NCBI GenBank assembly: GCA_943353165.1
Contig: CALRAM010000001.1
Location: 45,483-109,482 of the forward strand
Reading direction: 5' to 3'
Length of the DNA: 64,000 bases
DNA from: an uncultured Candidatus Saccharimonas sp.
GTDB lineage: Bacteria; Patescibacteriota; Saccharimonadia; Saccharimonadales; OMJO01
Shown: positions 5,688 to 36,700 of the stretch, one piece after another
How the letters are laid out: each line of letters opens with the position of its first letter
How positions within the stretch are numbered: the stretch's first letter is position 1
Notes under the pieces: model-generated
Told to the model about the DNA's origin: nothing
The model's database searches: none
What the model saw: only the letters and a program-made list of their open reading frames with translations
Made by a program: the position numbers and the translations under genes

Positions 5688-5710
5688 AAGCTTATTTTAT
5701 CACGCTTCTG

Positions 5711-6226: not shown

Positions 6227-6270
6227 TTATTATATCGTAGCAGAAATTATAAATTTTCCTTGCTTATGGT

Positions 6271-6276
6271 TATAAT
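6271..6276 (+). promoter_or_regulatory. -10 box TATAAT about 9 nt upstream of the pilB-like ATG (leaderless-type promoter)
   Basis: TGGTTATAAT directly precedes the ATG at 6286 with no SD. Confidence 0.35.
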
Positions 6277-6285
6277 AGATACTAT

Positions 6286-9958: not shown

Positions 9959-12558
9959 TTAGAAAAGTATTTTTTTATTTGGGTTAAATCACGGCGTTTC
10001 CAGGCAGACTGCCATTGTATGGTTTCAATCCCTTGCTTTATGGCTCTGCCCAAACTTGGATTGTCAATTTTATTAAAAAAAGATTTGAAGGTAGTTAAAA
10101 ACTTTTCGTCACTGTATGCTCTGGCGCAATACATCGGTATTCGATAAAACGATGAATCAGTTCCTAGATTTGTTTCCAACCAATCCCAGTTTTTTGTCAT
10201 CCATTCCCATGTTTGTTTTTTTGCGTGTCGGTTCATGAAACTATATGCCATCCAATACATAGCATCCTGCAACCTAACATTGTCGGAAATTATTTGGGAT
10301 AATGCTTTTTCAATGATTTCGGGCTGTTCAAAAGATGTCAAGGCTGCGGTCAAATTTAAACGTTCTTCGCTGGAATTTGTGGTGTTATGCATTTTCAGTA
10401 ATTTTTCAAAATCTATCATACTACCTTTGCGGGCAACGGTAGAGTATATTATTGCTCTGATATCTGGGTTTATACTATTTATCTCTTTCTTTTTATCTGG
10501 GTCAGATTTTTCTATTTTTATCTCCGCAAATAGTTCCAATGATTTCTTTATAACAGCTGGCTCGTCAGAAATAGCAGCCAAAGCAATAATTATAGGACGA
10601 AGCATGCGATCAAAATGTGTATCTTTTGGATTAATTTCCCACCCAAGTCTTTTTAATTCTTTTGCTATAAGCTTGCAAGTAAATGGTTTCATGAGTTCCC
10701 GTAACTCTTCGTTGTCCATTACCTGACGAATTGAACTCAAATTGGTGGCTATAATCTCCCAAACAGTATAGTCAATTTCCCCGTCGTAATTTTCTAGTAG
10801 TGTTAATGCATCGACCGTTTCATAATAGCCAGCTTTGGAAGCTTCAAAGCTGTCTGCAATAAGGCCCATGCGTTCTACAGAGCTAAGTTTTTTGGCTTTT
10901 ATCAAAGCCCCCAACTTTTTTAAATGTTCTGGATTGTAGACGACCCTGTAAAAGCCTGTACTGTTGCAGTTCAATAACGCAGGGGCTGTATTTCCTAGTG
11001 TAATATTCAAAGTTTTGGATTTCAAGACTGTAGGTGCATCTGTTAGGTTGGACAAGAGCGGTATCTCCCATAAGTTATGTTTTGTGCTTTTTGTATGTTT
11101 AGGATTACTAAAAAATCTTTGCTGGTTTAGCTTTATGGTATCTTTACCTACTTTTGCATTAATAATCGGGTATCCGTTTTCGTTTATCCAGACTGAAATA
11201 AATTCTGACACTGGTTTTTTTGATACTTCTTCTAGGGCGTCCCATAAATCTGTTGTTTCAGTGTTACTATATTCATTTTTCGTAAGATAAAGGTTTAATC
11301 CGTTTTGAAAATCTTTTTTGCCCAGATATTCGTGTAGCATATTTATAATGCTGGCGCCTTTGCTGTAACTTATGATGTCAAAAATAGTTCTGATATCGTT
11401 TGGGTCATCGACTGGAACAATTACTGGGTGTGTATGTTCCAAAGCGTCCGACTTCAAAGCAGCCATTTTTTCATTTGTAACGAACTGAGACCATATATTC
11501 CATTCTGGATGCAAAAAATCAACAGCCAAATATTCTATCCAACTAGCAAATCCTTCGTTAAGCCATAGGTCTGTCCACCATTTCATTGTAACCAGATTTC
11601 CGAACCATTGGTGTGCCAATTCATGACCTATAACCATAGCGATGTATTGTTTTCCATGAATTGATGTATTCAACGAATCAAGTAGTAATCCATGTTCGCG
11701 AAATGTAATTAGCCCCCAGTTTTCCATAGCTCCTGCTGCAAAATCTGGTAGAGCCACTAAGTCGCATTTTGGAAGGGGATAGTTTATTCCAAAATAATCA
11801 TTATAAAATTCTAACAAACTGACTGCGGTTTCTAGAGCGTAGGCACAAAGTTTTGTTTTTTCTGGGACTGAATAGGCTCGCACCACGACACCATTTTTAG
11901 TTTTTGATTCTATAAAATCTAGATCTCCGGTTACAAAAGCAAGTAAATAAGTTGACATATTAGGTGTAGTTTCAAAAACAGAAACCATATCACCATTTAT
12001 TTGCTTAAAAGACTTGGCTGGCATATTTGAAATGGCAATTTCTCCAATCAGGGAATGTAACGTAAGATCAAATGTTGCTTTAGCTTCTGGCTCGTCTATG
12101 CACGGGAACATTTCACGGGCGTGATGACTTTCTAGCTGAGTTGCGAGTATCTTTTTATCTTTTCCGTTACTGATAAAAGAGCTTTGATAAATGCCGTGCA
12201 TTGGCCTGGTTATTTTGCCCTTGAATTCTAGATATATAGTATATCTTCCTGGATATAAAGTGTTGTCTGCATGCAAGCGTACTTCGTCGTATAAATTATG
12301 ATTATTTATACGGACTATGTTTATTTCAGTGTCACCTTTTTTGGTATGTGCAGTTATTTTTGCACTTGTGATTATTAGACCCTTTTGGTGAAATACAATT
12401 TTTTTGGAAGGTTTATTTACCAAACTACCAGCAATAGTTACGTTACCCTTAAAACTTAGTTTTTGTTGGTCAGGGTTAATAGTAAGATTGTAGTTTTTAG
12501 GAATAAAATTGTTATATAAACGTTTTACACCTTTTGACATATAGATATATTTTAGCAC
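9955..12558 (-). CDS. pepN: aminopeptidase N (M1 family zinc metallopeptidase)
   Basis: GAMENWG exopeptidase motif and HELAHQWFGNLVT(x18)E zinc-binding motif. 867 aa. Confidence 0.9.
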   Translation of the reverse strand: MLKYIYMSKGVKRLYNNFIPKNYNLTINPDQQKLSFKGNVTIAGSLVNKPSKKIVFHQKGLIITSAKITAHTKKGDTEINIVRINNHNLYDEVRLHADNTLYPGRYTIYLEFKGKITRPMHGIYQSSFISNGKDKKILATQLESHHAREMFPCIDEPEAKATFDLTLHSLIGEIAISNMPAKSFKQINGDMVSVFETTPNMSTYLLAFVTGDLDFIESKTKNGVVVRAYSVPEKTKLCAYALETAVSLLEFYNDYFGINYPLPKCDLVALPDFAAGAMENWGLITFREHGLLLDSLNTSIHGKQYIAMVIGHELAHQWFGNLVTMKWWTDLWLNEGFASWIEYLAVDFLHPEWNIWSQFVTNEKMAALKSDALEHTHPVIVPVDDPNDIRTIFDIISYSKGASIINMLHEYLGKKDFQNGLNLYLTKNEYSNTETTDLWDALEEVSKKPVSEFISVWINENGYPIINAKVGKDTIKLNQQRFFSNPKHTKSTKHNLWEIPLLSNLTDAPTVLKSKTLNITLGNTAPALLNCNSTGFYRVVYNPEHLKKLGALIKAKKLSSVERMGLIADSFEASKAGYYETVDALTLLENYDGEIDYTVWEIIATNLSSIRQVMDNEELRELMKPFTCKLIAKELKRLGWEINPKDTHFDRMLRPIIIALAAISDEPAVIKKSLELFAEIKIEKSDPDKKKEINSINPDIRAIIYSTVARKGSMIDFEKLLKMHNTTNSSEERLNLTAALTSFEQPEIIEKALSQIISDNVRLQDAMYWMAYSFMNRHAKKQTWEWMTKNWDWLETNLGTDSSFYRIPMYCARAYSDEKFLTTFKSFFNKIDNPSLGRAIKQGIETIQWQSAWKRRDLTQIKKYFSN

Positions 12559-24323: not shown

Positions 24324-26360
24324 ATGAATGCTGATAAAACGATTTCTAGTTTAAAAGGTGTTGGTCCAGAAACCAACAAAAAACTACAAATATTAGGTAT
24401 AGAAAATGTTAGCGATTTGCTACACAACTACCCACGGCGATACGATGATTACTCAGAAATTTCTAGTATAGAAAATATAACTCCCGGCTTAGTAACCCTT
24501 AGAGCTTTAATTAAAAATACTACAGGCAGATACGTAGGCAGGGGTATGCATATAACTGAATCAATAGCAGTCGACAAGACTAGCTCTGTCAGATTGGTGT
24601 GGTTTAACCAGCCATACCGAGAGAAGTCGATACTCCCTGGTGTTGAATACTTTATTTCTGGAGAATTTGCCTTGCGCAACCAACGATTATGCGTACAGAA
24701 CCCAACCATAGAGCGTGCCGATAGCTTCAATCTAAACACAGCTAGGATAGTCCCAATATACAAAGAAACAAAAGGCTTAAAATCTAGCCAGATCAGGAAA
24801 CTAGTTAAACAAAATATTCCAAACATAAAAATACTCCCAGAAACTCTACCAGCCTGGTTGATAAAAAAAGAAAAACTTTTTTCCAGGTCACAAGCTATAT
24901 TGGCCATGCATTTTCCGGAATCGCCAGAACTACTCGAAAAAGCGAAAAAAAGAATAGGTTTCGAAGAAGTTTTCGAGCTTACTCTGGCAGCCCTGATGAA
25001 CAAAAAAGATTTGGCTGGAGAACACGCACTAAATATTTTGTTTGACAAAGATTTGGCCAAAAACTTCGTGGACCACCTACCTTTTAAACTTACAGATTCA
25101 CAAAAGAAAACAGTTTGGCAAGTATATAAGGATATGGAGCGCGAACAGCCCATGAATAGATTGATTGAAGGTGATGTTGGTAGTGGCAAAACTATCGTGG
25201 CAGTCATGGCGGCAGTCATGGCCATAAAACAAGGATTTCAAGTAGCTTTTATGGCACCAACAGAACTACTAGCTCGACAGCACGCTGACACTATTTGTGA
25301 ACTTTTGAAGCCCTTAGGTATGGAGGATAAACTAGGTTTGTTGTTGGGTAGCCTAAAACCTGCGCAGAAAACACAGTTACATGCAGCGATAGGGTCTGGT
25401 AAAATCCAGTTCATTGTTGGTACGCATGCTCTAATTTCTGAAAAAGTTATTATGCACAGTTTAGGCCTGATAATTATTGATGAACAACATCGTTTTGGAG
25501 TTCAGCAAAGAAAAAAATTACAATCAAAAGCGGGATATATGCCGCACGTTATGAGCATGACAGCAACACCAATCCCGCGGAGTTTGGCATTGACACTTTA
25601 CGGAGAAATGGATATTTCCGTCATAGACGCAAAGCCACCCGGAAGGCTACCAATTAAAACTACTATTTGCTCTCCAAATTCTAGGCCTCAGTTGTACGAA
25701 CAAATAGATAAACAGCTAGCAAGTGGTAGGCAAATGTTTGTGGTGTGCCCTCTGATTGTTCAGAGCGATATGTTGTCCGCAGAATCCGTTGAAAATGTAT
25801 TTAGTAATTTAAAGAGTACAGTATTTAAACACCGTCAAATTGGTATTTTGCATGGCAAGATGAAAGCAGAAGAAAAGGAAAATACAATGAAGCTGTTTGT
25901 AAACGGTAAATTAGATATTTTGGTTTCTACGACTGTTGTAGAGGTTGGAGTAAATGTCCCCAACGCTACAGTCATGTTGATAGAAAATGCCGAGAGATTT
26001 GGCTTGGCTCAGATACACCAACTGCGCGGTAGAGTTGGTCGAAGCTCGCACCAAGGCCACTGCTACCTTATGATGGGCGATAGTTCTAGGCCTAGCAGGC
26101 GAATTCGCGCATTAGAAAAAAACAGTGACGGTTTTGCCTTAGCAGAATTAGATTTAGAAATTCGTGGTCCAGGAGCTATCTATGGAACGATGCAACATGG
26201 AGCTTTAGACCTAAGGGTTGCCAAGTTGACAGATATCAAAATGATAGCTTCTGCGCGTAACGCAGCGCAAGAATTCATAGATAGTGGAGAAAGTTTGCTA
26301 CAATACAATCATCTAAGTGGGCGCATATCAATCTTAAGGTCTGTAACAAATTTGAACTAA
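24324..26360 (+). CDS. recG: ATP-dependent DNA helicase RecG
   Basis: Wedge/OB N-terminus, helicase motif I GDVGSGKT, DEQH, and motif VI QLRGRVGR. Confidence 0.9.
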   Translation: MNADKTISSLKGVGPETNKKLQILGIENVSDLLHNYPRRYDDYSEISSIENITPGLVTLRALIKNTTGRYVGRGMHITESIAVDKTSSVRLVWFNQPYREKSILPGVEYFISGEFALRNQRLCVQNPTIERADSFNLNTARIVPIYKETKGLKSSQIRKLVKQNIPNIKILPETLPAWLIKKEKLFSRSQAILAMHFPESPELLEKAKKRIGFEEVFELTLAALMNKKDLAGEHALNILFDKDLAKNFVDHLPFKLTDSQKKTVWQVYKDMEREQPMNRLIEGDVGSGKTIVAVMAAVMAIKQGFQVAFMAPTELLARQHADTICELLKPLGMEDKLGLLLGSLKPAQKTQLHAAIGSGKIQFIVGTHALISEKVIMHSLGLIIIDEQHRFGVQQRKKLQSKAGYMPHVMSMTATPIPRSLALTLYGEMDISVIDAKPPGRLPIKTTICSPNSRPQLYEQIDKQLASGRQMFVVCPLIVQSDMLSAESVENVFSNLKSTVFKHRQIGILHGKMKAEEKENTMKLFVNGKLDILVSTTVVEVGVNVPNATVMLIENAERFGLAQIHQLRGRVGRSSHQGHCYLMMGDSSRPSRRIRALEKNSDGFALAELDLEIRGPGAIYGTMQHGALDLRVAKLTDIKMIASARNAAQEFIDSGESLLQYNHLSGRISILRSVTNLN

Positions 26361-26363
26361 AAT

Positions 26364-27182
26364 ATGTATAGCGGTACAACATTAAATAAAACATCTGGTC
26401 GTATTCTAGGTACACACCAAAAAATAGACAGAGTAGCTCGAAAGCATTTGTCTGTTATTTTAGAAGATAACAACGTTTTTCCTAAAGCAAACGCCATACT
26501 GCATTTTGAAGGCAAAAATGGCCCCGATGGCATCAAACGCAAGAGTCCCGCAAAGGACGAGCTGTGGCACTATTATAGTCCTTTTGACGACGATGATTCG
26601 GCCTTGCTAGATCTGATAAGAAACCATTACGACAAATTAGTCACAGAACTGCGTGCAAATAACGTTGAGCGAGTAGCATTCGAAGCTGCCTGGCTGTCCC
26701 ACGCTTTGGTTGACGGCCTAACGCCTGCGCATCATTACCCATATGAAGAAAAACTTTCCGAACTAAGGGGAGGCGAAGGTATGGAAAGCCGTGATTCTGT
26801 AAAAGATAAACTAATAATGCCAGGCAATACGCGTAGACAAAAGGTCAAAAACAATTGGAAAATGTGGGGACCAAAAGGATTGTTTACTACTCATGGTTTA
26901 TTCGAGATGGGTGTGGCCACAATTATGGCACCACTGGCCATGAAGGATGCAATGCCAACCGAATCTGATATAAATGAGCTTCTAGATATAGGCCTGTTAG
27001 AACGTTTTAAGAGAACAGCCAGAGAAATCGCAGTTTTAGATATGTACCATAATTATTATAAAAAAGGTTGGACACCCAAGTTTGCACACCAGGTTCGTCA
27101 TCAACTGGGCCCTGTAATAGTTAAAACAGTAACATTAGCATGGTATAGCGCCTTGATTGACGCCGGCAAAGTTAACAAATGA
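26364..27182 (+). CDS. hypothetical protein (His-rich putative metal-binding motifs)
   Basis: 272 aa. No confidently recognisable family; AWLSHALVDGLTPAHHYPYEE segment. Confidence 0.45.
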   Translation: MYSGTTLNKTSGRILGTHQKIDRVARKHLSVILEDNNVFPKANAILHFEGKNGPDGIKRKSPAKDELWHYYSPFDDDDSALLDLIRNHYDKLVTELRANNVERVAFEAAWLSHALVDGLTPAHHYPYEEKLSELRGGEGMESRDSVKDKLIMPGNTRRQKVKNNWKMWGPKGLFTTHGLFEMGVATIMAPLAMKDAMPTESDINELLDIGLLERFKRTAREIAVLDMYHNYYKKGWTPKFAHQVRHQLGPVIVKTVTLAWYSALIDAGKVNK

Positions 27183-27709
27183 GAGTAATTTCAGGATCTT
27201 TGGGTGGCCAAAATTTTGAATCTCCTCATGGCCATAGAACTCATCCCATGAGCGACAAAATACGCGGTGCCATTTTTGGTGTATTAGGAGATATTAGCGG
27301 CTGTAGCGTGTTGGACGCTTTTTCTGGTAGCGGAGCTTTAGCCATAGAAGCCATCAGTAGAGGATCGTCTAGCGCTGTAGCCGTAGAAGTTGATGCTGGC
27401 GCACACGCTATAATAGTCAAAAACATCCAAAAGCTTGGAATAGAAAAAAAAGTTAAAGTTGTTCGGGCATTTGTAAATGCCTGGTCCACTAGGCATCAGG
27501 ACCAGTTATTTGACATTATCTTTGCAGATCCACCATACGACAATATCCCATATCGCGATCTTAAATTTTTAGCCAGACACCTAAAGCCAACCGGCACACT
27601 GGTATTGTCTTGGCCTGGCAAAGCAGATGTATACTATATTCCCGAACTAATTGAAGTTCAGATCAAAAAATACGGCGATGCCCAGCTAATATTTTATAAA
27701 TATGCATAA
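27179..27709 (+). CDS. rsmD: 16S rRNA (guanine966-N2)-methyltransferase RsmD
   Basis: VLDAFSGSGALAIEAISRG and the DPPY motif (FADPPYD). Confidence 0.85.
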   Translation: MRVISGSLGGQNFESPHGHRTHPMSDKIRGAIFGVLGDISGCSVLDAFSGSGALAIEAISRGSSSAVAVEVDAGAHAIIVKNIQKLGIEKKVKVVRAFVNAWSTRHQDQLFDIIFADPPYDNIPYRDLKFLARHLKPTGTLVLSWPGKADVYYIPELIEVQIKKYGDAQLIFYKYA

Positions 27710-27789
27710 TCATATTTTACTAATTACGCAAAATTTAGTACAATAACAGAGTGGTATAAGGAAAAAACATATGGATCTGTCGTATGTTA

Positions 27790-27830
27790 TGCGGACGACC
27801 GTGGCTGAAGGTTCATCCTATACGCCAAGT
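27790..27830 (+). pseudogene. degenerate tRNA-Leu relic (acceptor/D 5' 14 nt fused to a T-arm-like segment)
   Basis: GCGGACGACCGTGG matches the tRNA 5' end. The following CTGAAGGTTCATCC resembles the T-arm GTGAAGGTTCAAGTCC. Confidence 0.3.
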
Positions 27831-27850
27831 ACGATACAATTTATAATTAC

Positions 27851-27890
27851 GCGGACGATCGTGGAATTGGTAGACACGCTAGCCTTAGGA
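27851..27890 (+). pseudogene. tRNA-Leu 5' half (acceptor through anticodon loop) lacking a matching 3' half
   Basis: GCGGACGATCGTGGAATTGGTAGACACGCTAGCCTTAGGAG is 38/40 identical to the 5' 40 nt of the intact tRNA-Leu, then diverges into repeat copy 1. Confidence 0.5.
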
Positions 27891-27998
27891 GTGAAACCCG
27901 CCTGTGGCGGGTTGCAAGGTCGGAAGCCTGGATTGCGCAAGCAACCAAGCTGAGACGGGGTCGCAACCGATTGGACTATGTCCAATAGGATTGTGACA
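27891..27998 (+). repeat. structured GC-rich repeat, copy 1 (core CCCGCCTGTGGCGGGTTGCAAGG plus nested hairpins)
   Basis: Shares the 23-nt core hairpin with copies 2-5. Has a GGTCGCAA...TTGTGACA stem with an extra inserted hairpin ATTGGAC-TAT-GTCCAAT. Confidence 0.6.
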
Positions 27999-28131
27999 GT
28001 GCCGCAAGGCGTGAAGGAGAGACCCGCCTGTGGCGGGTCGCAAGGTAGACAACTCTTGCGAACTGGTTTGCAAAGATGTTGCTACGGGGTCGCTGAAAGT
28101 GACCAAGTCCTTTTCAAAAGCCTCTTGAACC
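27999..28131 (+). repeat. structured repeat, copy 2 (tRNA-Leu variable-arm-like 5' box GTGCCGCAAGGCGTGAAGG plus three hairpins)
   Basis: GCGTGAAGG-AGAGACCCGCCTGTGGCGGGTCGCAAGG; hairpin 2 CAACTCTTGCGAAC-TGG-TTTGCAAAGATGTTG; hairpin 3 GGTCGCT-GAAA-GTGACC. Confidence 0.6.
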
Positions 28132-28151
28132 TTCATAATATTATACAGTGC

Positions 28152-28236
28152 GCGGATGTGGTGGAATTGGTAGACACGCTAGCCTTAGGAGCTAGTGCCG
28201 CAAGGCGTGAAGGTTCAAGTCCTTTCATCCGCACCA
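28152..28236 (+). tRNA. tRNA-Leu(TAG), class II with long variable arm and encoded CCA
   Basis: Acceptor GCGGATG/CATCCGC; anticodon stem CTAGC/GCTAG with loop CTTAGGA; variable arm GCCGCAAGGCG; T-arm GAAGG-TTCAAGT-CCTTT; 3' ACCA. Confidence 0.85.
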
Positions 28237-28245
28237 ATCAAAAAA

Positions 28246-28268
28246 TGCTCTCTTTTGAGAGCTTTTTT
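28246..28268 (+). terminator. intrinsic terminator after tRNA-Leu
   Basis: GCTCTC-TTTT-GAGAGC followed by TTTTTTT. Confidence 0.6.
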
Positions 28269-28286
28269 TGATTTGTTCTGGAAGGT

Positions 28287-28422
28287 CTTGAACCAAACCC
28301 TAAGGCGTGAAGGCGAGAGCCGCCTGTGGCGGGTTGCAGGGAAACCTTTCAGATTATCTACTTGTTGATAGTATGAAAGTTTTGGGGTCGCGGAACGTGA
28401 CCAAGTCCTTTCATCCGCACCA
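28287..28422 (+). repeat. structured repeat, copy 3, ending in an exact tRNA-Leu 3' end (AAGTCCTTTCATCCGCACCA)
   Basis: CTTGAACC...CCTAAGGCGTGAAGG-CGAGAGCCGCCTGTGGCGGGTTGCAGGG; hairpin 2; GGTCGCG-GAA-CGTGACC; then a 20-nt exact match to the tRNA 3' terminus. Confidence 0.65.
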
Positions 28423-28428
28423 AAACAA

Positions 28429-28455
28429 GTGACCCCGAAAGGGGTCTTTTGTTTT
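28429..28455 (+). terminator. intrinsic terminator after repeat copy 3
   Basis: GACCCC-GAAA-GGGGTC followed by TTTTGTTTT. Confidence 0.5.
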
Positions 28456-28467
28456 GGTGGTCGAAAT

Positions 28468-28650
28468 GCCCAGAACCTTCACCCTAAAAAGGCGTGAAGG
28501 GGAGAGCCGCCTGTGGCGGGTTGCAAGGCAACTTTACAGATTTCAAACTTGTTTGAAGTATGTAAATTGAGGGGTCGTGGAACGTGACCGAGCCCCCTGT
28601 CTTTCTGACAAGAAGGCCAGGCAGGACGGACAGGTTTCATTCACACCAAC
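28468..28650 (+). repeat. structured repeat, copy 4 (degenerate 3' end with extra insertion)
   Basis: GCCCAGAACC...AGGCGTGAAGG-GGAGAGCCGCCTGTGGCGGGTTGCAAGG; hairpin 2; GGTCGTG-GAA-CGTGACC; a diverged tRNA-like tail GGTTTCATTCACACCAA. Confidence 0.55.
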
Positions 28651-28750
28651 CATATATTGTATGAACTGACACAAAATAACACCTATAGAGGAACGTCCTC
28701 TTTCTCTTGTTTCTGTTCTACACCCAATAGACTTGTAATTGATTTTTTAC

Positions 28751-29329
28751 TCATACAAATTTGTCCGCTAGTTCTTTTGTCTGATAATTCTTAAAATAAT
28801 TTAAGATATCATTCAAATCACTGCCAATAAACACAAAATCACTAAAAGGCACTTTTGAGAAATCTTTCTGTTGCATTTCATCTAGGAATTTTATGAGCGT
28901 ATCGTAAAAACCATCATAGTTAAAAATAGCAATCGGTTTGTCGTATAGTTTATTTACTTTACCACCAACAATTTCTCCAATTTCTTCAAATGTTCCGTAG
29001 CCGCCGGGCAAAATAATAAATGCGTCTGATTCAAAAACTATACGATGTTTGCGGTCGTCCATAGTTTCTTCTAAGTATGTTTTATCAAGTCCATCAAATG
29101 CTACATAGCCTTTGGTAACTGCCATCAAATCTTTTGCCATCACGCCAGTCAAATCATTGCCGCCAGCGTCTTTATAGGCTTTAGCAAGTTCAGACATCAT
29201 CCCATAGTCTGTTCCACCATAAACAATACCCATTTTTTCATTAGCAAGTCGTTCGGCAACTTCTATAGTCAAATCAATATATTCCTGCCCAACTGACAAA
29301 GAAGATGTAAGAGTTATACCCACTTTCAT
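28751..29329 (-). CDS. LOG-family protein (TIGR00730, cytokinin riboside 5'-monophosphate phosphoribohydrolase-like)
   Basis: PGGYGTFEE signature, GxGxxG-like MGIVYGGTDYGMM, Rossmann-like fold pattern. Start trimmed to MKVGIT. Confidence 0.8.
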   Translation of the reverse strand: MKVGITLTSSLSVGQEYIDLTIEVAERLANEKMGIVYGGTDYGMMSELAKAYKDAGGNDLTGVMAKDLMAVTKGYVAFDGLDKTYLEETMDDRKHRIVFESDAFIILPGGYGTFEEIGEIVGGKVNKLYDKPIAIFNYDGFYDTLIKFLDEMQQKDFSKVPFSDFVFIGSDLNDILNYFKNYQTKELADKFV

Positions 29330-29406
29330 AAATCTAATTATACAACAATTACCCAAAAATCTTTTCAGCCAAAAACTAAAAACCCTACAGAGCAGTTCAG
29401 CGAGTC

Positions 29407-29532
29407 GCCCAGAACCCTAAGGCGTGAAGGGGGGACCCGCCTGTGGCGGGCCGGACGTAAACAAACTCTTGAAAACTGGTTTTCAAAGATGTTTTTCTGG
29501 GTGAGATGAGAAGGGGGCTCATTGTATAGGGA
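29407..29532 (+). repeat. structured repeat, copy 5 (in the divergent LOG/hisS intergenic region)
   Basis: GCCCAGAACCCTAAGGCGTGAAGG-GGGGACCCGCCTGTGGCGGG plus hairpin 2 of the copy-2 subtype (AAACTCTTGAAAAC-TGG-TTTTCAAAGATGTTT). Confidence 0.55.
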
Positions 29533-29602
29533 CACAGACAAGATTATTCTACATCATCGATTACTAAAACCTATTTATGATGTATTATAAATAGGAATAA
29601 CT

Positions 29603-30910
29603 ATGGCACTATCTACACAACCATACAAAGGATCTAGGGATTTTTACCCAGAAGACAAGCGTCTCCAAAAACATATATTTGGAGTCATGCGTTCTATCTC
29701 TGAAAAATACGGCTACCAGGAATATGATTCGCCTATTTTAGAACCTACAGAAATATATTCAAACAAAACAAACGAAGAGATTGTAAACGAACAAACATAC
29801 ACATTCGAGGATCGGGGTAATAGAAAAGTTACTATTCGCCCAGAAATGACTCCATCAGTCAGTCGAATGGTTGCAGCCAAAAGGCAAGAGCTTCCATATC
29901 CGTTGCGTTGGTACTCGTTGCCCGTCAACTGGCGATATGAACGCCCTCAACGTGGCAGACTACGTGAATTTTGGCAACTAAACGTTGATTTGTTTGGTAT
30001 CGCAGGCTTAGAGGCAGAAGCAGAAGTCATCCAAGTCGCAGACGATATCATGAAGGCTTTTGGCGCTAAACCAAACATGTACAAAATAAAGATTAACAGC
30101 CGCAATTTGATGGATTACTTTATCAGCGATAGTTTGGGCATGGATAGCGTACAGTCGTCTGTACTAGTTCCGTTAATTGACCGGATGCATAAAATGGATT
30201 TTGCAGAATTTTCTGGGCAAGTAGAAGCGATATTTACACCTTCACAACGCGAAAATTCCGGACCTGATCAGTTATTTGAATTTTTAAAGATAACTAGTAT
30301 CGACGACCTACCCATTTCAATAAAAAACCATCCCTCTGTGATTACGCTAGTCAATTTGATAAAAAGGCTGACAAACGCGGGAATTACAAATGCTGTGTTC
30401 GAACCAACACTAATGCGAGGTTTTAACTACTACACAGATGTAGTATTCGAGGTTTTTGATACCCATCCAGACAATAATCGTTCTATGTTTGGTGGAGGGC
30501 GCTACGATGGCTTGGTAGGCGCCTACGGAGTAGAATCAGTCCCGACAGTCGGATTTGGCATGGGAGATGTGACAATATACAATTTTTTGGAATCACACGG
30601 CCTTACACCAACAGTCAAAACAGAAACGGATGTATGCGCGATTATTATAGGCGATACGCTAGAGCCCGCCCTAAAAATTATTTCTGAGCTAAGAGAAATG
30701 GGACTAAATGTTGCAGTGGCCAGTACCGAACAAAAGATAGACAAACAGATCAAAATAGCTGTCAAAAACGGCATAAAATTTGCAGTATTTTTAGGAGAAA
30801 AAGAGATAAAAAATCAACAAGTACTACTCAAAAATTTAGAAAATAGTACAGAAGAAATCGTCAGTTCACAGAGAGCAGTCAGCATCATCAAAGACTTTCG
30901 TATAAAATGA
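29603..30910 (+). CDS. hisS: histidyl-tRNA synthetase
   Basis: Class II aaRS motifs: RPEMTPSVSRMV, WRYERPQRGRLREFWQ (motif 2), GGGRYDGL (motif 3), and an anticodon-binding C-terminus. Confidence 0.9.
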   Translation: MALSTQPYKGSRDFYPEDKRLQKHIFGVMRSISEKYGYQEYDSPILEPTEIYSNKTNEEIVNEQTYTFEDRGNRKVTIRPEMTPSVSRMVAAKRQELPYPLRWYSLPVNWRYERPQRGRLREFWQLNVDLFGIAGLEAEAEVIQVADDIMKAFGAKPNMYKIKINSRNLMDYFISDSLGMDSVQSSVLVPLIDRMHKMDFAEFSGQVEAIFTPSQRENSGPDQLFEFLKITSIDDLPISIKNHPSVITLVNLIKRLTNAGITNAVFEPTLMRGFNYYTDVVFEVFDTHPDNNRSMFGGGRYDGLVGAYGVESVPTVGFGMGDVTIYNFLESHGLTPTVKTETDVCAIIIGDTLEPALKIISELREMGLNVAVASTEQKIDKQIKIAVKNGIKFAVFLGEKEIKNQQVLLKNLENSTEEIVSSQRAVSIIKDFRIK

Positions 30911-31356
30911 CGGCTAGTAATCATGTCGTAACTGGAGCATTGATTGGAGCTATAGTTCCCGTTCCTGTTGTTGCTATCCCTCTTGCGCTTGCCTCCCATC
31001 TGGTTCTGGACGCATCTCCGCATTTTGGCTCAAAAAATATGACCTTAACTGATACGAAGTTCATGGCCATCTTGGGGACTGATATATTTGTTTCACTTAT
31101 GATTTTATCGGCAGTGTATATAGCTAGACCGACAAATTGGATATTGATGCTAGTGTGTGCGGTGGTATCTGCCAGCCCAGATTTGGTGTGGCTACCTTAT
31201 TGGATAAAAGAACTAAGAGGAAAAAATTTCAAACGCAGTCGTCTAGCGCATTTTCTGGGGTGGATACAATGGGGCGAGAGACCATGGGGCTGGCTAGTAG
31301 AGATAGGCTATTTTGTAGCCATTATATATTTTCTCAGATCTTATCTGATGGTTTAG
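30907..31356 (+). CDS. hypothetical polytopic membrane protein (translationally coupled to hisS, ATGA overlap)
   Basis: 149 aa with four hydrophobic helices and an HLVLDASPHF motif; possibly a membrane-bound metal-dependent hydrolase-like protein. Confidence 0.45.
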   Translation: MTASNHVVTGALIGAIVPVPVVAIPLALASHLVLDASPHFGSKNMTLTDTKFMAILGTDIFVSLMILSAVYIARPTNWILMLVCAVVSASPDLVWLPYWIKELRGKNFKRSRLAHFLGWIQWGERPWGWLVEIGYFVAIIYFLRSYLMV

Positions 31357-31394
31357 CTAGCTAATTACTGATTTATTTGATAGAATTCAAAACT

Positions 31395-32675
31395 ATGCAA
31401 GTTTCTAAAAAGTCATTAAATTCAAATCAGGTAATTATCTCCATAGCCGCAGACGAATCAGAACTGTCTAAAATAAAAGGCAAGGTCCTGACTAATTTGT
31501 CCAAAAGTATCAAGATTCCTGGTTTCAGAAGCGGTAAAGCTCCATCAAAATTAGTAGAAAAGACGGTAAATCCCGCAACGCTACAGTCAGAATTTTTAGA
31601 CGATGCTATAAATAGTTTGCTCCGGCAGGCTATATCAAAAGAAACTTATAAGGTTATTGGTGACCCAGAAATTTCATTAAAAAAGTTTGTTCCCTTCACC
31701 ACATTAGAATTTGAAGCAATTTTTCCCATTATTGGAGAGATTATTTTACCCAATTATAAATCAATGAAATTTAGCAAGAAAAAGGTAGCTGTTACAGAAA
31801 CAGAAGTCACCGGCGTAATAGACATGCTTCGCAAACGTTTGGCTGAAAAATCAGATGTAACCAGAATAGCCAAAAAAGATGATGAAGTTACTATTGATTT
31901 TAAAGGGACTGACGACAAGGGTAAACTAGTAGCAGGAGCTGAGGCTAAAAACTATCCTCTTATACTAGGTTCAAATGCATTTATTCCAGGCTTTGAAGAT
32001 AATATCTTGGGCATGAAAACTGGAGACGAAAAAAACTTTGATATCAAATTTCCAAAAGATTACAATGTAGCGGCTTTGGCATCAAAATCAGTAAATTTCC
32101 ACATAAAAGTAAATAATGTACAGGAATTATCTTTGCCAATTATAAACGATGATTTTGCTGCAAAAGCTGGCCCATTCAAAACTTTAACCGCGTTAAAAGC
32201 AGACATATTATCTCAATTACAAAACGAAAGGTCGCAGGAAGTTGAACGTAATTATGAATCAGAAATAATACAAACTATTACAAAAAAAGCTAAACTTTCA
32301 GTTCCAGTGTTACTTACAAATAGTACTGTCGAACAGATGATACGAGAACAAAAACAAAATCTAACGTATAAAGGTCAAACTTATAAAGAATTTTTGGAAC
32401 TAGAAGGTATTACAGATGAACAAAACAAAGCTCAGATGATACCAGATGCCGAAATGCGCGTAAAAGCCAGTTTGGTCCTAGCAGAAATTGCAGATATAGA
32501 AGGTATAAAAATCACAGAAAAAGAACTTAACCAACGAATTGATTTGCTAAAAAATCAATACAAAGATGAGTCCATGCAGTCCGAGCTAGACAAGCCAGAA
32601 AGTCGTAGTAACATTGCTAGCCGGATATTGACCGAAAAAACAATCGATTTTATAAAGGAGACTGTGTCGAAATGA
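31395..32675 (+). CDS. tig: trigger factor
   Basis: N-terminal ribosome-binding motif IKIPGFRSGKAPSKLVEK (GFRxGxxP), an FKBP-like middle and a C-terminal arm. Start trimmed to MQVSKK. Confidence 0.85.
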   Translation: MQVSKKSLNSNQVIISIAADESELSKIKGKVLTNLSKSIKIPGFRSGKAPSKLVEKTVNPATLQSEFLDDAINSLLRQAISKETYKVIGDPEISLKKFVPFTTLEFEAIFPIIGEIILPNYKSMKFSKKKVAVTETEVTGVIDMLRKRLAEKSDVTRIAKKDDEVTIDFKGTDDKGKLVAGAEAKNYPLILGSNAFIPGFEDNILGMKTGDEKNFDIKFPKDYNVAALASKSVNFHIKVNNVQELSLPIINDDFAAKAGPFKTLTALKADILSQLQNERSQEVERNYESEIIQTITKKAKLSVPVLLTNSTVEQMIREQKQNLTYKGQTYKEFLELEGITDEQNKAQMIPDAEMRVKASLVLAEIADIEGIKITEKELNQRIDLLKNQYKDESMQSELDKPESRSNIASRILTEKTIDFIKETVSK

Positions 32676-32893
32676 CAGAAAAAGAGGCAATAGCAGAAAA
32701 AGCTAAGGAACAAGGCAGGTTGATGTTGGGTGGCATAGCATTGGCAGGCACAGTCATGATAGGCTTTGGAGTAGCAGAGCTAGCATTGAACGGCATAGCT
32801 GCAGCCGAGACGGTGTTAGGTTTTAGCTTTGTTCTTCTAGGGTCTACTGCCTTAGCAGCAAATAAGATAAATAGTCGTTCCCTAGAAAAATAA
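32672..32893 (+). CDS. small hypothetical membrane protein (73 aa) between tig and clpP
   Basis: Two Gly/Ala-rich hydrophobic helices; ATGA overlap with the tig stop. Confidence 0.35.
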   Translation: MTEKEAIAEKAKEQGRLMLGGIALAGTVMIGFGVAELALNGIAAAETVLGFSFVLLGSTALAANKINSRSLEK

Positions 32894-32963
32894 CTGAAAA
32901 TAATTAGCACTCTTGACTAGAGAGCGCCAGATTATGTATCATGTAGGTTCAAAGGATATAAAT

Positions 32964-33566
32964 ATGCCAAACAGCTCGATGTTGATACCAACAGTCATAG
33001 AAAACGAAGGCCGAAGCGAAAGAGCCTATGATATTTATTCTAGACTTTTAAAAGATCGAATTATTTTTTTGGGAACAGAAGTAAACGAGCACACAGCAAA
33101 TCTAGTTGTGGCTCAACTACTGTTTTTGGATAACCAGAATTCTACAAAAGATATATATTTGTACATAAATAGTCCCGGCGGAAGTGTTTACGATGGTATG
33201 GCTATTTATGACACTATGAATTTCGTTAAATCAGATGTGCAAACGGTTGGCATCGGGCTGCAAGCCAGCATGGGAGCTTTTTTGTTAAGCTCTGGCGCCA
33301 AAGGAAAACGGTCTTTGTTGCCACATAGCAAGGTAATGATTCACCAGCCTTCTAGTGGAACGAGAGGCAAAGTTACTGATATGGAGATAGATCTAAAAGA
33401 ATCTCTAAATGTAAAAAAACTACTAAACGACATTTTAGCAAAAAACACTGGACAAAAATTATCCAAAATAGAGGTAGATGTAGACCGCGATTATTGGATG
33501 ACAGCCCAAGAAGCCAAAAACTACGGTTTGGTTGACACGGTTATATCCAAAGTACCTAAATCATAA
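32964..33566 (+). CDS. clpP: ATP-dependent Clp protease proteolytic subunit
   Basis: YINSPGGSV (Ser nucleophile region), MIHQPS (His), catalytic triad context. Start trimmed to MPNSSM. Confidence 0.9.
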
Positions 33567-33794
33567 AATGCTTGACATTATACGGTTTTTCTATCAGACT
33601 GGTGTATAAGAAGTAGTTTACAAAGGGCAGTGCTTTTATTTGTCAGCAAATAGCACCAAAATCACCTCTAGTAGTAACCTTCGCGCGCAAAATTACAACA
33701 ACTACAAAATCATTTTATAAAATTTAGTTTGGGCACTATGTGAAGTGTTTATGTATGAACATTCACTAACTAACAAACAGATAAGGGGATCCCG

Positions 33795-36700
33795 TTGCTT
33801 ATGGCGAAGACCGCTAAAACTTCAACACCCGTGCAATCAAAACGCACGTATTTTACTGACAATGATGAAATTTTGGATTTACCAGATTTGGTGGATCATC
33901 AGAATCGTTCATTTAAATGGTTCGTAGAAGAAGGCCTAGGAGAACTGCTAGCAGAGATTAGCCCCATAGAAGATTATACGGGCACTAAATTATCACTAAG
34001 TTTTAAAGATTATCATTTCGAACTACCTAAAATATCAGAAACAAAAGCCAGAGATGACAACATCTCCTACGATGCTCCACTAAAAGCTGTAGTTGAACTA
34101 ACAAACAAAGTTACCGGCGAAGTTAAAGAGCAAGAAATTTATTTAGGTGATTATCCTTGGATGACAGACGAAAAGGGTACATTTATCATAAACGGGGCTG
34201 AACGAGTAGTTGTATCGCAACTAATACGTTCTGCAGGAGTCTTTTTTACTGCCGATAGTCACGGTACAAAAAATTTATATGGCGCCAAAGTTATACCCGG
34301 ACGTGGGGCTTGGCTAGAGTTTGAAACTTCAGCTGCCGGTGCACTGTTCGTAAAGATAGACCGAAAAAGAAAACTTGCCGTAACTACATTGCTTCGTGCC
34401 CTGGGTGTTACCGATGCGCAAATGAAAGATGCTTTCAAGCATGTTGACTTGGGCAAGCTAAATTATATAGACGCAACACTTGGAAAAGATACATCTAGAG
34501 GTGTCAATGAATCCTTGATTGAAGTTTATCGACGCCTAAGGCCAGGTGACCAAGCTACCGTTGAAAACGCTCGTGAGTTACTAGTCAATATGTTTTATGA
34601 CTTTAAAAGGTTTGATTTTAGCCGAGTTGGTCGTTACAAAATAAACAAGAGACTAGATATGGACATACCAAACACTGTAGAAAACCGCATAATGCGACTG
34701 GAAGATCTAGTTGCCATAATCGCAGAAGTAATTCGATTAAATAATACTCAGGAACCAGCTGACGATATAGATAGCTTGGCAAACCGTAGAGTCAAATTGG
34801 TTGGAGAATTAATACAGCGACAATTTAGAATTGGTCTGTTGCGTATGGAAAGAAACACAAAAGACCGCATGAGTATGTGCGAAATAGAAACAGTTACTCC
34901 TGCACAATTAATAAATGCGCGACCTATCGTAGCTGCAGTCCGCGAGTTTTTTGCAAGCTCCCAGTTGTCTCAGTTCATGGACCAGATCAACCCACTCAGC
35001 GAGCTAGCTCACAAAAGACGATTAAGTTCTATGGGACCAGGCGGCTTGTCCAGAGAACGAGCAGGCTTTGAAGTGCGTGATGCTCATGCTACACACTACG
35101 GACGCATATGTGCTGTAGAAACCCCAGAAGGAGCAAACATTGGTTTGGTTCTAAACTTGGCTAGTTATGCCCGCATAAATGACTACGGCTTTATAGAAAC
35201 ACCTTACCGCAAAGTCATCAATGCTGTTACAGCCAAAAATAGCGTTGGCCACATAGCCAGTGTTAATCTTGAAAACGAAAAAGGCAAAACAATAGTAAAA
35301 GCAGGCCAAAAAATTACAGCCGACCAAGCTAAAAAATTAGCAGAAACAAAAACCAGAATAACCTGGCCCGTAAAAGCTGTAGTTACCAGAGATATAGTCT
35401 ATCTAAACGCAGCTGATGAGGTTTCTGCGATTATTGCAAATGCTAGCGAAGAATTTGACACTAACGGACACTTCATAAACCAGCGTATATCAGCCCGAAT
35501 AAACCTAAAGGCCGGAGAAGTCGACGCAAACGATATTACTCATATGGACTCCAGCAGAAAACAAATTATTGGCTCTAGTGCTGCACTTATTCCTTTTATT
35601 GAAAAGAATTATGTTTACCGTTCACTCATGGGTAGCAACCAGCAAAGACAGGCAGTGCCGTTGATACAGCCTAGCTCGCCAATTGTAGGTACTGGCATGG
35701 AAGCTAACGCTGCCAGAAACACAGGCCAGCTAATAGTCGCTGCTCAAAATGGCGAAGTCGTCAAAGCTTCTGCCGACGAAGTATCAGTAAAATACAAAGA
35801 CGGTATAGTCAAATATAGCCCATTGCACTACAAACGCAGCAACGAAGGAACCAGCATAAACCAAAAAGTTGTAGTCAGTAGCGGAGACATGGTTAAAGCA
35901 GGCGACTCTCTGATTGAGGGTATGTCAATATCTGACGGCGAATTAGCCCTAGGCAAAGACCTGACAGTCGCATTTATGCCTTGGAACGGATACAACTTTG
36001 AAGATGCCATAATCATATCTAGGAAACTTGTAGAAGATGACAGATTGACTAGCGTTCATATCGTAGATTTTATGGTAGAAGTTAGAGAGACAAAATTAGG
36101 ACCTGAAATCATCACACAGGATATACCAAATGTTTCAGAAGAAGCCCTTCGTCATCTTGACGAAAACGGTATCGTTCGAGTTGGAGCAGAAGTTCATCCA
36201 GGCGATATATTGGTAGGCAAAATTACACCAAAGGGAGAACAAGAACTAAGTTCAGAAGAACGACTGCTACGGGCAATATTTGGCGAAAAAGCCAAAGAAG
36301 TTCGTGATACTTCCCAGAGAATGAGTAACGGCAAGCACGGAAAAGTTGTAGGGGTGAAACTATTTACCAGAGCCAACGGAAACGAGTTAAAAGCCGGCGT
36401 ACTAATGCAAATTCAAGTTTTTGTAGCTCAAATGCGCAAAATTTCTGTTGGTGACAAACTGGGTGGTCGGCATGGCAACAAGGGTGTTATAGCTCGAGTT
36501 CTGCCAGTTGAAGACATGCCTTTTATGGCTGACGGAACACCGGTAGAAATTGTATTGAACCCACTTGGGGTTCCTAGCAGAATGAACATTGGACAATTAT
36601 TTGAAACTCACCTGGGTATGGCTGCCAAAGCCCTTGGCATAAAGGTTGCTAGCCCGGCATTCAACGGTGTAGGTATAGATAAAATTAAATCACTACTAAA

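Follow-up and report, generated by a model that had tools for sequence, protein, structure and literature searches.

The LOG/TIGR00730-family gene upstream of hisS in this uncultured Saccharimonadales genome is very probably accessory cargo of a small, strain-variable insertion array, which is located within the tRNA-Leu(UAG) gene of the rsmD-hisS interval. Saccharibacteria have tiny genomes, in which gene gain and loss are poorly understood, and we found at least four structural alleles in one species at this one tRNA gene (the empty site, two LOG-bearing array types and a full LOG-CBU_0592 module), which represent gene flux caught in progress, without a visible mobility enzyme. In the scenario that we favor, the ancestral and still circulating allele would be rsmD, tRNA-Leu, hisS. 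The array is a series of R units, each a T-arm copy with a ~90-nt three-hairpin replacement of the T-loop, followed by a tRNA 3′ end and a terminator, with one R placed in the anticodon loop. LOG would have arrived within a two-gene LOG-CBU_0592 module bounded by inverted repeats, which, judging from the L216, L084 and window alleles, probably underwent an inversion in this lineage and lost all but LOG and 40 nt of CBU_0592. Recombination between direct repeats (tRNA 3′ ends or R units), microhomology or a trans-acting recombinase probably account for the gain, loss and reshuffling.

In the window, by which we mean the entire 64,000-nt stretch of DNA analyzed, rsmD ends at 27709 and the hisS ATG is at 29603, with LOG as the sole credible protein gene between them. 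The repeat core CCGCCTGTGGCGGG is present in this interval in five copies, all on the plus strand, at 27898, 28024, 28320, 28507 and 29437 (R1 to R5 below), and is absent from the rest of the 64 kb, where the chance expectation was 0.08 matches and none of 100 shuffles reached five. The interval contains the following features:

27852-27891, plus: pseudo-tRNA-Leu(UAG), the 5′ half of the original gene, with 31 nt identical to the intact tRNA
27891-27996, plus: R1, an R element in the anticodon loop of the pseudo-tRNA, with an extended P3 (covariance-model match of 29.9 bits, 27891-27982)
27997-28122, plus: tRNA variable-arm and T-stem fragment, R2 at the T-loop position, then AAGTCCTTT (covariance-model match of 112.5 bits, 28009-28122)
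28124-28131, plus: CTTGAACC, the reverse complement of the T-loop GGTTCAAG (read from the sequence)
28152-28236, plus: intact tRNA-Leu(UAG), within the inserted block (ARAGORN; Rfam tRNA model, 60.5 bits)
28247-28262, plus: terminator-like hairpin after the intact tRNA-Leu
28305-28422, plus: R3 unit, consisting of T-stem 5′ strand, three hairpins, AAGTCC, T-stem 3′ strand, acceptor 3′ strand and CCA (covariance-model match of 114.7 bits; consensus fold)
28431-28446, plus: terminator-like hairpin after R3
28492-28650, plus: R4 unit, copy 4 (covariance-model match of 90.8 bits, 28492-28609)
28676-29408, minus: LOG segment common with the sister strain L086 (95.5% identity)
28687-28701, plus: terminator-like hairpin at the left edge of the LOG segment
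28711-28750, minus: CBU_0592 remnant, the first ~13 codons (MSKKSITSLLGVE...; alignment and translation)
28751-29329, minus: LOG/TIGR00730 gene, intact, ATG start, 192 aa, with the PGGYGTFEE motif
29337-29344, minus: putative extended −10 box TGTATAAT (minus-strand reading), 7 nt upstream of the LOG ATG, kept in L085, L084, L086 and L213
29355-29408, minus: conserved LOG leader (sequence comparison with L084, L088 and L216)
29410-29500, plus: R5, copy 5, which retains the leader, P1 and P2 but not P3 or the tRNA tail (covariance-model match of 47.4 bits, 29422-29559)
29555-29602, plus: native sequence upstream of hisS, again homologous to the empty allele (allele comparison)

This arrangement agreed with the preliminary description of the locus, which had placed a LOG-family gene on the opposite strand, as the only protein gene of the repeat field, beside a tRNA gene, between repeat copies 4 and 5 and upstream of hisS. 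Copy 4, said to end about 100 bp from the 3′ end of LOG, has its match end at 28609 and a tail to ~28650, 101-142 nt from the stop codon, and copy 5 indeed lies in the divergent LOG-hisS region, within the 273-nt gap between the ATGs at 29329 and 29603. The LOG segment consists of the plus-strand terminator, the CBU_0592 remnant, LOG, its putative promoter and the conserved leader. The R4 tail, which is 93.8% identical to L086 3305-3368, is broken by a ~40-nt insertion with a hairpin and terminates in a degenerate tRNA 3′ end, tttcattcacacca. R5 shares 94.4% identity with the complete unit Ra of L086, and a homologue of R1 was found in L040 (4884-4977), with compensatory changes in hairpin P1.

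Across 80 related hisS loci the gene order was conserved as recG, a PLC-like gene, rsmD, tRNA-Leu(UAG), hisS, tig, clpP, with an rsmD-hisS gap of 145 bp to >5 kb; the interval was variable in many species without R. No LOG homologue was present in this gap in any of 80 related Saccharimonadales species, showing that repeat-free relatives have not kept LOG at this site. Within the species, four assemblies (L217, L218, L220 and L221) have an empty site, in which rsmD, tRNA-Leu and hisS are present but the repeats and LOG are both missing, and in which the gap is 290 bp long and contains the tRNA only. Filled alleles were found in the window, in L089-L092 and in L219. In the only filled/empty pair compared directly, the hisS sides of L217 (empty) and L219 (filled) were 99.83% identical over 5356 nt, and an identical hisS protein (P0243) was found with both forms; the LOG array is a presence/absence polymorphism among close relatives.

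Alignment of the alleles located the insertion within the tRNA gene itself. The 5′ flank of the pseudo-tRNA (27852-27891) is the same as that of the tRNA in L086 and L217, and homology to the empty allele of the sister strains stops at 27891, in the anticodon loop of the pseudo-tRNA; 1663 nt (27892-29554) of the window allele stand in place of 62 nt of the empty allele. The array brings its own intact tRNA-Leu inside the insert, and the gene was restored by the incoming DNA. L086 represents the empty site with a 1130-bp insert, bounded by duplicated tttcatccgcacca (the 3′ part of the tRNA) and with the native downstream flank at its far end; the right junction of the window is eroded and has no tRNA 3′ copy beside hisS.

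The origin of LOG was indicated by its neighbor in other genomes, where a gene for a CBU_0592-family membrane protein follows LOG with an overlapping ATGA; the intact CBU_0592 gene of L085 matches NF047864. Window positions 28713-29345 share 94% nucleotide identity with L085, in which LOG and then CBU_0592 stand in an unrelated context, and only ~40 nt of CBU_0592 survive in the window. In L216, from the same species, the C-terminus of CBU_0592 adjoins R5, and the LOG leader sequence is inverted and located after CBU_0592. The same leader sequence forms the 78-nt inverted repeats around LOG-CBU_0592 in L084 and L088; the repeats in L085 and L213 are direct and 117-132 nt long, and Rfam gave no match for those flanking LOG in L085. 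The nearest LOG genes outside the species occur in unrelated contexts. LOG has matches at 95, 92, 90, 89 and 88% identity in other contexts, and LOG-CBU_0592 is tRNA-adjacent in two of four lineages. Very similar copies of the block (99.3-100% identity) were found in L085, L213 and L215, the flanks of which are only 83-89% identical. The LOG-CBU_0592 module spreads horizontally among Saccharimonadales, and near-identical copies across such flanks point to a recent horizontal spread of what is predicted to be a nucleotide-processing function, which may bear on salvage in auxotrophic Saccharibacteria. In the DNA compared, LOG is the sole gene common to the L085/L213/L215 lineage and the window, which leaves no direct measure of their relatedness. 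The accessory and horizontally acquired status proposed in the preliminary description was supported by the spread of the module, the four same-species empty sites and the lack of LOG at this position in the 80 related species.

The direction of the change within the species, gain or precise loss, cannot be read from the alleles alone, and LOG might have been an old resident, with the empty alleles arising as secondary deletions via duplicated tRNA 3′ ends. The direct repeats of the tRNA 3′ end that flank the L086 array would make precise deletion mechanically easy, and the window-type allele is the commoner one, since the index of the collection places the identical LOG protein in 47 blocks, and all four places listed show the window arrangement. 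Nevertheless, long residence appears very unlikely given the absence of LOG here in 80 other species and its 94% nucleotide identity to genes elsewhere, against an hisS for which 5.8 billion proteins include no relatives between its own 90%-identity cluster and ~67% identity. The truncated CBU_0592 likewise indicates that the segment came from a larger module, and even if single empty alleles were deletions, the array would still be inserted DNA when compared with the ancestral state of the order.

LOG reads as an intact, expressed-looking type-I LOG. The program-made ORF list gave it a longer start, TTG at 29356. The protein scored above the curated cut-offs of PF03641 (81.8 bits; cut-off 27) and TIGR00730 (99.1 bits; cut-off 96.35), and its PGGYGTFEE, which represents the PGGxGTxxE nucleotide-binding motif, aligned with PGGYGTLEE of 2a33, one of its best solved structural relatives together with 5its and 1t35. 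By these properties it belongs to the LOG/TIGR00730 family, which includes Bacillus subtilis YvdD and Arabidopsis LOG3; however, at 66.6 bits it lies far under the cut-off of 300 for the cytokinin riboside 5′-monophosphate phosphoribohydrolase equivalog NF058542. Judging from family membership, the most likely activity would be that of a nucleoside 5′-monophosphate phosphoribohydrolase releasing free base and ribose 5-phosphate, which would most likely be useful for nucleotide salvage in an auxotrophic epibiont. The conserved −10 box suggests a promoter and a leaderless or near-leaderless LOG transcript. Foreign composition, to which the preliminary description had looked as a possible mark of LOG origin, was not observed: GC (z = −1.4), GC3 (z = −1.0) and codon usage (distance rank 5 of 19) were all ordinary, making composition uninformative.

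The repeats around LOG proved to be members of a large family. R, ~90 nt long and made up of three hairpins, takes the place of the T-loop in a copied tRNA T-arm, and units of this family occur beside many different tRNA genes on >120 metagenome contigs, flanked by the adjacent tRNA's own T-stem and 3′ end and ending in terminators. The CTTGAACC motif is present with every R unit and was also seen in L059, L127, L113, L149 and L125. Tails were decayed in several units, and most units are without cargo. In 10 units, 21 of 32 pairs were compensatory; in 109 units, pairing was retained in 95.8% of cells compared to 29-50% in slid controls, and the covariation score reached 0.534 compared to ≤0.097 in these controls. 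The consensus is a four-way junction, rather than a single bulged hairpin, with P1 and P3 unlike each other. The family is detectable only via tRNA-fragment duplicates combined with the covariance model; the exact repeat core, with ≤2 mismatches allowed, gave four scattered single matches in 80 related loci, none of them among the covariance-model R units. Rfam searches of the repeats returned only tRNA at the gathering score and, at E values up to 10, only low-scoring miRNA, snoRNA and sRNA models far under it, and literature searches found no description of the element. R is a widespread, apparently undescribed structured element tied to tRNA T-loops and, if proved mobile, would represent a new way to target tRNA genes.

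A conserved structured element with tRNA-derived sequence, located on the same strand as hisS and ~100 nt upstream of it, could also be read as a cis-regulatory leader (T-box-like or a riboswitch) of hisS or LOG, in which case the bracketing of LOG by copies 4 and 5 would reflect regulation, not mobility. This role of copy 5 is extremely improbable. Expression of hisS proceeds without any R in most related species and in the strains with the empty allele; because these strains have no copy 5, we rejected a hisS leader or T-box role for it. Moreover, R5 is a truncated copy, members of the family follow many unrelated tRNA genes and have terminators at their ends, and no T-box or riboswitch appeared in the Rfam searches even at the relaxed E value.

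The window locus contains no gene for an integrase, a transposase or a reverse transcriptase, and LOG is the only gene within the island, which carries no integrase or recombinase gene. The 25 Pfam families most often matched by 94 rsmD-hisS gap ORFs of related species included no mobility family, a Pfam scan of 142 proteins beside R units revealed none that recur, and clustering of the proteins neighboring R returned housekeeping families only. The R pattern had no matches in a viral contig collection, leaving a phage attachment-site origin unsupported. Several established element types were considered and were not supported: a composite transposon or IS-borne gene (no transposase family recurs among the gap ORFs or R neighbors), an IS200/IS605-like miniature element (the hairpins of the two ends are dissimilar, unrelated terminators form the left ends, and the search revealed no gene for TnpA), and a guide RNA with a structured scaffold and 20 nt of tRNA 3′ end (several units have decayed tails, and there are no TnpB- or IscB-like genes in the vicinity).

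The cassette-like bracketing of LOG noted in the preliminary description held as far as the position between copies 4 and 5 is concerned, but not for these copies as the termini of a LOG cassette; in L086 the LOG segment interrupts a repeat unit. The flanking repeats are T-arm-embedded structured units of an insertion array in the tRNA gene, not LOG cassette ends. A fuller version of the cassette reading, in which the R copies serve as recombination sites (like integron attC or tandem-accreting att sites) and LOG is moved from R to R by a recombinase encoded elsewhere, could explain why R-gene-R recurs in the window (LOG), L037 (a 162-aa ORF) and L108 (a GNAT-like gene), and why hairpin sequence varies while pairing is kept, as would suit a site that is recognized in folded, single-stranded form. 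The arrangements R4-LOG-R5 (window) and R5-like-LOG-R4-like (L086) would fit excision of a circle and re-entry at another R, and the outer inverted repeats of LOG-CBU_0592 in L084, beside tRNA-Gln, carry R-like motifs (GAACC, GTGAGA and GGCGGGTCGC). We nonetheless regard such a system as rather unlikely: most R units bracket no cargo, the LOG segment neither begins nor ends at an R boundary, and the cargo of both L086 and L037 splits an R unit rather than lying between complete units. Furthermore, no recombinase is associated with the gap ORFs or R neighbors, LOG has its own putative promoter and points against the array, and the covariance model finds no R in other LOG contexts. Because the LOG segment ends differ from R ends and the L086 segment interrupts an R unit, R-mediated mobilization of LOG is not demonstrated; since neither the locus nor the recurrent neighbors of R units include a gene for a recombinase or transposase, it can only be inferred.

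The repeats could instead be irrelevant to LOG, the module having landed by illegitimate or microhomology-mediated recombination after DNA uptake in a fragile, hairpin- and repeat-rich region beside the tRNA. The L086 junction at a common GGCGGGTCG(C) between the LOG leader hairpin and R hairpin P1, the cutting of CBU_0592 at an arbitrary point, the eroded right junction of the window and the variability of the rsmD-hisS interval in many R-less species are all consistent with this explanation, which is a real possibility, if short of an even chance. LOG-CBU_0592 was, however, repeat-flanked in every context seen, besides being tRNA-adjacent in half of its lineages, which is more order than random insertion predicts. 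As for R itself, we tentatively propose that it may be the structured end (RNA or single-stranded DNA) of undescribed, integrase-less miniature mobile elements, which would enter the T-loop or anticodon loop of a tRNA, bring a replacement tRNA part and a terminator, and pile into arrays, occasionally with cargo like the LOG module; Saccharimonadales tRNA genes would then serve as cassette-collecting sites.

The favored reading of LOG as cargo of a tRNA-borne array invited comparison with known systems. Williams reportedly distinguished, in 2002, T-loop and anticodon-loop sublocations for tyrosine-integrase elements. Similarly to tRNA-targeting genomic islands, the present insertions occur at the anticodon loop and T-loop, an intact tRNA is restored by incoming DNA, the displaced native 3′ end lies at the far end as a direct repeat (seen in L086; the window copy is eroded), presence varies among close strains, and the cargo is unrelated to the flanking genes. 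In contrast to these islands, the array has no integrase or other mobility gene, its units are as small as ~175 nt, each junction carries a conserved three-hairpin element at the T-loop position, and its composition is not atypical. Cis-mobilizable elements (CIMEs), described in Streptococcus, represent tandem accretion of integrase-less with integrative elements. They share with the array the direct att-like repeats, the short or empty intervals, the occasional cargo, the single target gene and the reshuffling between copies; here, however, no autonomous partner element was found, and the repeats are structured R units instead of plain att cores.

Integron cassettes resemble the locus in that single small genes are bracketed by sites (attC) with retained pairing and varying sequence. 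Unlike integrons, it revealed no IntI, attI, Pc or GTTRRRY core sites, the neighbors are rsmD and hisS, LOG has its own −10 box and lies antisense to the array, and most R units bracket nothing. Thermoproteales archaea carry transposed non-canonical tRNA introns in T-loops and other positions. The host here is bacterial, most R-bearing copies are missing one half of the tRNA and do not function as genes, and no bulge-helix-bulge motif or splicing enzyme is implied for R, but in both cases short structured inserts occupy anticodon-loop and T-loop positions of different tRNA genes.

The gene order around LOG, the TIGR00730-family gene of the window, was as follows.

24324–26360: recG, at the start of the local gene order, followed by a phospholipase-C-like gene (PLC-like)
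27179–27709: rsmD, after the PLC-like gene, with the repeat field next
28152–28236: tRNA-Leu(UAG), after the repeat field
28751–29329, minus strand: LOG, between tRNA-Leu(UAG) and hisS
29603–30910: hisS, followed by a gene for a 149-aa membrane protein, tig, clpP and rpoB

The preliminary description had placed LOG between the fourth and fifth repeat copies (R4 and R5) near the tRNA and hisS, which was accurate: R4 ends 101–142 nt beyond the LOG stop codon, and R5 lies within the 273-nt divergent LOG/hisS gap. The LOG product scored above the PF03641 and TIGR00730 cut-offs in an HMM search and its translation contains PGGYGTFEE; its closest solved structures were plant and bacterial LOG enzymes and B. 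subtilis YvdD, and it fell far under the cytokinin-LOG equivalog cut-off. Family membership makes a nucleoside 5′-monophosphate phosphoribohydrolase acting in salvage its most likely role. The reading frame is intact, with an extended −10 box kept 7 nt upstream of the ATG. Between the window and its sister strain L086, dN/dS estimated by hand from substitution counts was about 0.24 for LOG and about 0.08 for hisS, suggesting that LOG is under constraint, weaker than that on hisS. The gene for the 149-aa predicted membrane protein (30907–31356) overlaps the hisS stop codon and is conserved directly 3′ of hisS in most related loci; the protein had no match in Pfam.

We compared the locus, which belongs to a Saccharimonadales (Saccharibacteria, TM7) genome, with 80 related hisS loci (≤67% amino-acid identity) from MAGs of Saccharibacteria/Saccharimonadales or unclassified uncultured bacteria. 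The order recG, PLC-like gene, rsmD, tRNA-Leu(UAG), hisS was conserved across the 80 species, with an rsmD–hisS gap ranging from 145 bp (L015, tRNA only) to >5 kb and holding assorted ordinary genes, e.g. SpoU methylase, HisG and OMP decarboxylase; a LOG homologue (E up to 1e-5) occurred in this gap in none of the 80. The site was also empty in four assemblies of the same species (L217, L218, L220 and L221), where rsmD is followed by 140 nt, tRNA-Leu, 65 nt and the hisS ATG. These empty sites show decisively that LOG is accessory here, as its placement had first hinted. On the hisS side, L217 and the window-type assembly L219 are 99.83% identical over 5356 nt (about 29555–34000 in the window) and encode identical hisS proteins. 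Their rsmD side is 97.8% identical over 494 nt (window about 27400–27891), and this lower identity hints that the left flank may have been imported along with the array.

The window and the empty allele are homologous as far as 27891, within the anticodon loop of a tRNA that has become a pseudogene, and again from 29555; between these points 1663 nt of the window stand in place of 62 nt of the empty allele. Therefore, the functional tRNA-Leu of the window lies within the inserted block. In L086, whose hisS is 98.1% identical to that of the window at the nucleotide level, the last unit of the repeat terminates in tttcatccgcacca, and ttatcgtttatcaatagc comes next; these two are the native 3′ end of the tRNA and its native flank. 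L086 can thus be described as the empty allele into which 1130 bp have been inserted, with direct repeats of the tRNA 3′ end at the borders of the insert. Filled and empty alleles alike carry gcggacgaccgtggctgaaggttcatcctatacgcc upstream of the tRNA site (window 27788–27826, L217 3789–3827, and L086). It looks like an acceptor 5′ strand fused to a T-arm-like fragment and is perhaps an older relic of a tRNA.

Five copies of the 14-nt repeat core are present in the window (chance expectation 0.08), all of them within this region and in plus orientation, and every copy sits among tRNA-Leu pieces: the variable arm and the 5′ strand of the T-stem (aaggcgtgaagg) precede it, and AAGTCC, the 3′ strands of the T-stem and then of the acceptor, and CCA follow it. 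The copies fill 27891–28650 and 29410–29500. The insert, R, of about 90 nt, occupies the T-loop position and consists of three hairpins linked by conserved single-stranded motifs in the order TGAGA, P1, TCGCAAGG, P2, P3, where P3 is GGGGTCGC-GNAAN-GTGACC. RNAalifold analysis of ten R units placed the T-stem as the closing helix of a four-way junction; 21 of the 32 pairs show compensatory changes. For 109 units collected with a covariance model, to which their alignment was itself fitted, 95.8% of cells were paired versus 29–50% with slid partners, there were 576 double-sided changes, and the covariation score was 0.534 versus ≤0.097 in controls. The R4-type unit of both the window (28590–28635) and L086 (3320–3395) has its T-stem 3′ strand parted from the acceptor tail by a hairpin-containing insertion of ~40 nt (ccctgtc...gacagg), possibly another inserted element, smaller than R.

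R-homologous units adjoin tRNA-Leu(UAG), without exception on its strand, in 14 of the 80 related loci. A scan of metagenomes by the P3 plus T-arm pattern matched at least 120 contigs, and among those listed R adjoins tRNA-His, Lys, Pro, Ile, Arg, Ala, Val and Gly, and five Leu isoacceptors, cag, caa, gag and taa among them; R is not specific to tRNA-Leu(UAG). Each R in metagenome contigs L093–L172 lies inside a T-arm copy of the adjoining tRNA, bordered by the T-stem and 3′ end of that same tRNA, on the same strand and 45–80 nt downstream of the tRNA or some 25 nt upstream of it; its own terminator usually follows, and an inverted T-loop copy, CTTGAACC, accompanies it. In R units upstream of a tRNA (window 28111–28139 and equivalents in L127, L113, L149 and L125), this copy precedes by about 20 nt an AT-rich stretch right before the intact tRNA, and therefore could double as the tRNA −35 box (TTGAAC). 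R had no match in Rfam, its pattern occurred zero times in a viral contig collection, and we found no description of the element in the literature; the 142 proteins neighbouring R units included no recurring recombinase family, and no enzyme gene was found associated with R among its neighbours. The array resembles tRNA-gene islands in its insertion in a tRNA gene and differs in the window by having no integrase and by junctions marked with a widespread and apparently undescribed three-hairpin element, and it represents a new variant of such islands.

LOG itself was found in unrelated contexts in L085, L213, L215, L084, L088 and L082. Where called (L085, L213, L214, L215 and L088), the downstream gene encodes a 91-aa CBU_0592-family membrane protein and overlaps LOG by ATGA; L084 sequence aligns to CBU_0592 at the same place. 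The window retains only the first ~40 nt of CBU_0592 (MSKKSITSLLGVE...), and L216, from the window's species, carries the exact CBU_0592 C-terminus on the plus strand, then an inverted copy of the LOG leader (the conserved stretch upstream of LOG), then R5. In L084 (5640–7010) and L088 (400–1560) the two genes lie between 78-nt inverted repeats made of LOG leader. The LOG segment of the window is a piece of a two-gene module that is mobile. In the simplest history, a complete LOG–CBU_0592 module bounded by inverted repeats would have inserted, inverted across these repeats and, in the window lineage, lost CBU_0592 by deletion. Counting weaker outer parts with the R-like motifs GAACC, GTGAGA and GGCGGGTCGC, the inverted repeats reach ~110 nt; the genes there directly follow tRNA-Gln(ttg) and a terminator, with a second tRNA-Gln 5′-end copy on the other side of a scaffold gap.

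Three contigs share a common context (rpsP, trmD, ..., a His_Phos_1 phosphatase gene, LOG, CBU_0592, a P-type ATPase gene) around a LOG–CBU_0592 block of about 1.43 kb.

L085, about 5270–6700: LOG–CBU_0592 block
L213, about 10170–11600: LOG–CBU_0592 block
L215, about 9980–11371: LOG–CBU_0592 block

Their flanks are 83–89% identical, in contrast to 99.3–100% for the block. Its left bound is one copy of a 117–132-nt direct repeat that duplicates in part the 5′ end of the divergent gene upstream. Window LOG is 94.1–94.3% identical to the block in nucleotides and 96.4% identical to LOG at the same locus of L086, compared with 98.1% for hisS there. Among 5.8 billion proteins, hisS had its own 90%-identity cluster and then nothing down to about 67% identity, whereas LOG had matches at 95, 92, 90, 89 and 88%. 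This void, together with the close LOG matches, would imply transfer of LOG between lineages differing at genus level or more, the donor-like lineage (L085/L213/L215) being comparable with the window through LOG alone. Composition, suggested earlier as a check, did not flag the gene (GC 35.4%, GC3 28.5%, z about −1), as expected if donor and recipient were both AT-rich Saccharibacteria. We conclude with high confidence that LOG was acquired horizontally and is cargo of an insertion array targeted to a tRNA gene.

The suggestion that LOG is mobilised cargo holds for the spreading module; mobilisation by the repeats is a possibility. The LOG segment common to the window and L086 (28676–29408) has the same ends and different neighbours, the order being tRNA, R3, R4, LOG, R5 in the window and tRNA, R5-like unit, R leader, LOG, 3′ part of an R4-like unit in L086. 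This permutation could reflect a circle that was excised and re-entered through R homology, or microhomology-mediated rearrangements. The L086 junction falls at GGCGGGTCG, common to the LOG leader hairpin and R hairpin P1. An R–gene–R arrangement recurs in L037 and L108, but the majority of R units bracket nothing. We favor, with moderate confidence, reshuffling of LOG by homologous or microhomology recombination among repeats; a dedicated cassette mechanism is possible. The gene between the two R units of L108 (10675–12186) is GNAT-like (172 aa), and beside it lies a gene for a 165-aa protein that has two helix-turn-helix repeats and a weak match to the model of Cbp1, which binds CRISPR repeats (62 bits against a cut-off of 140).
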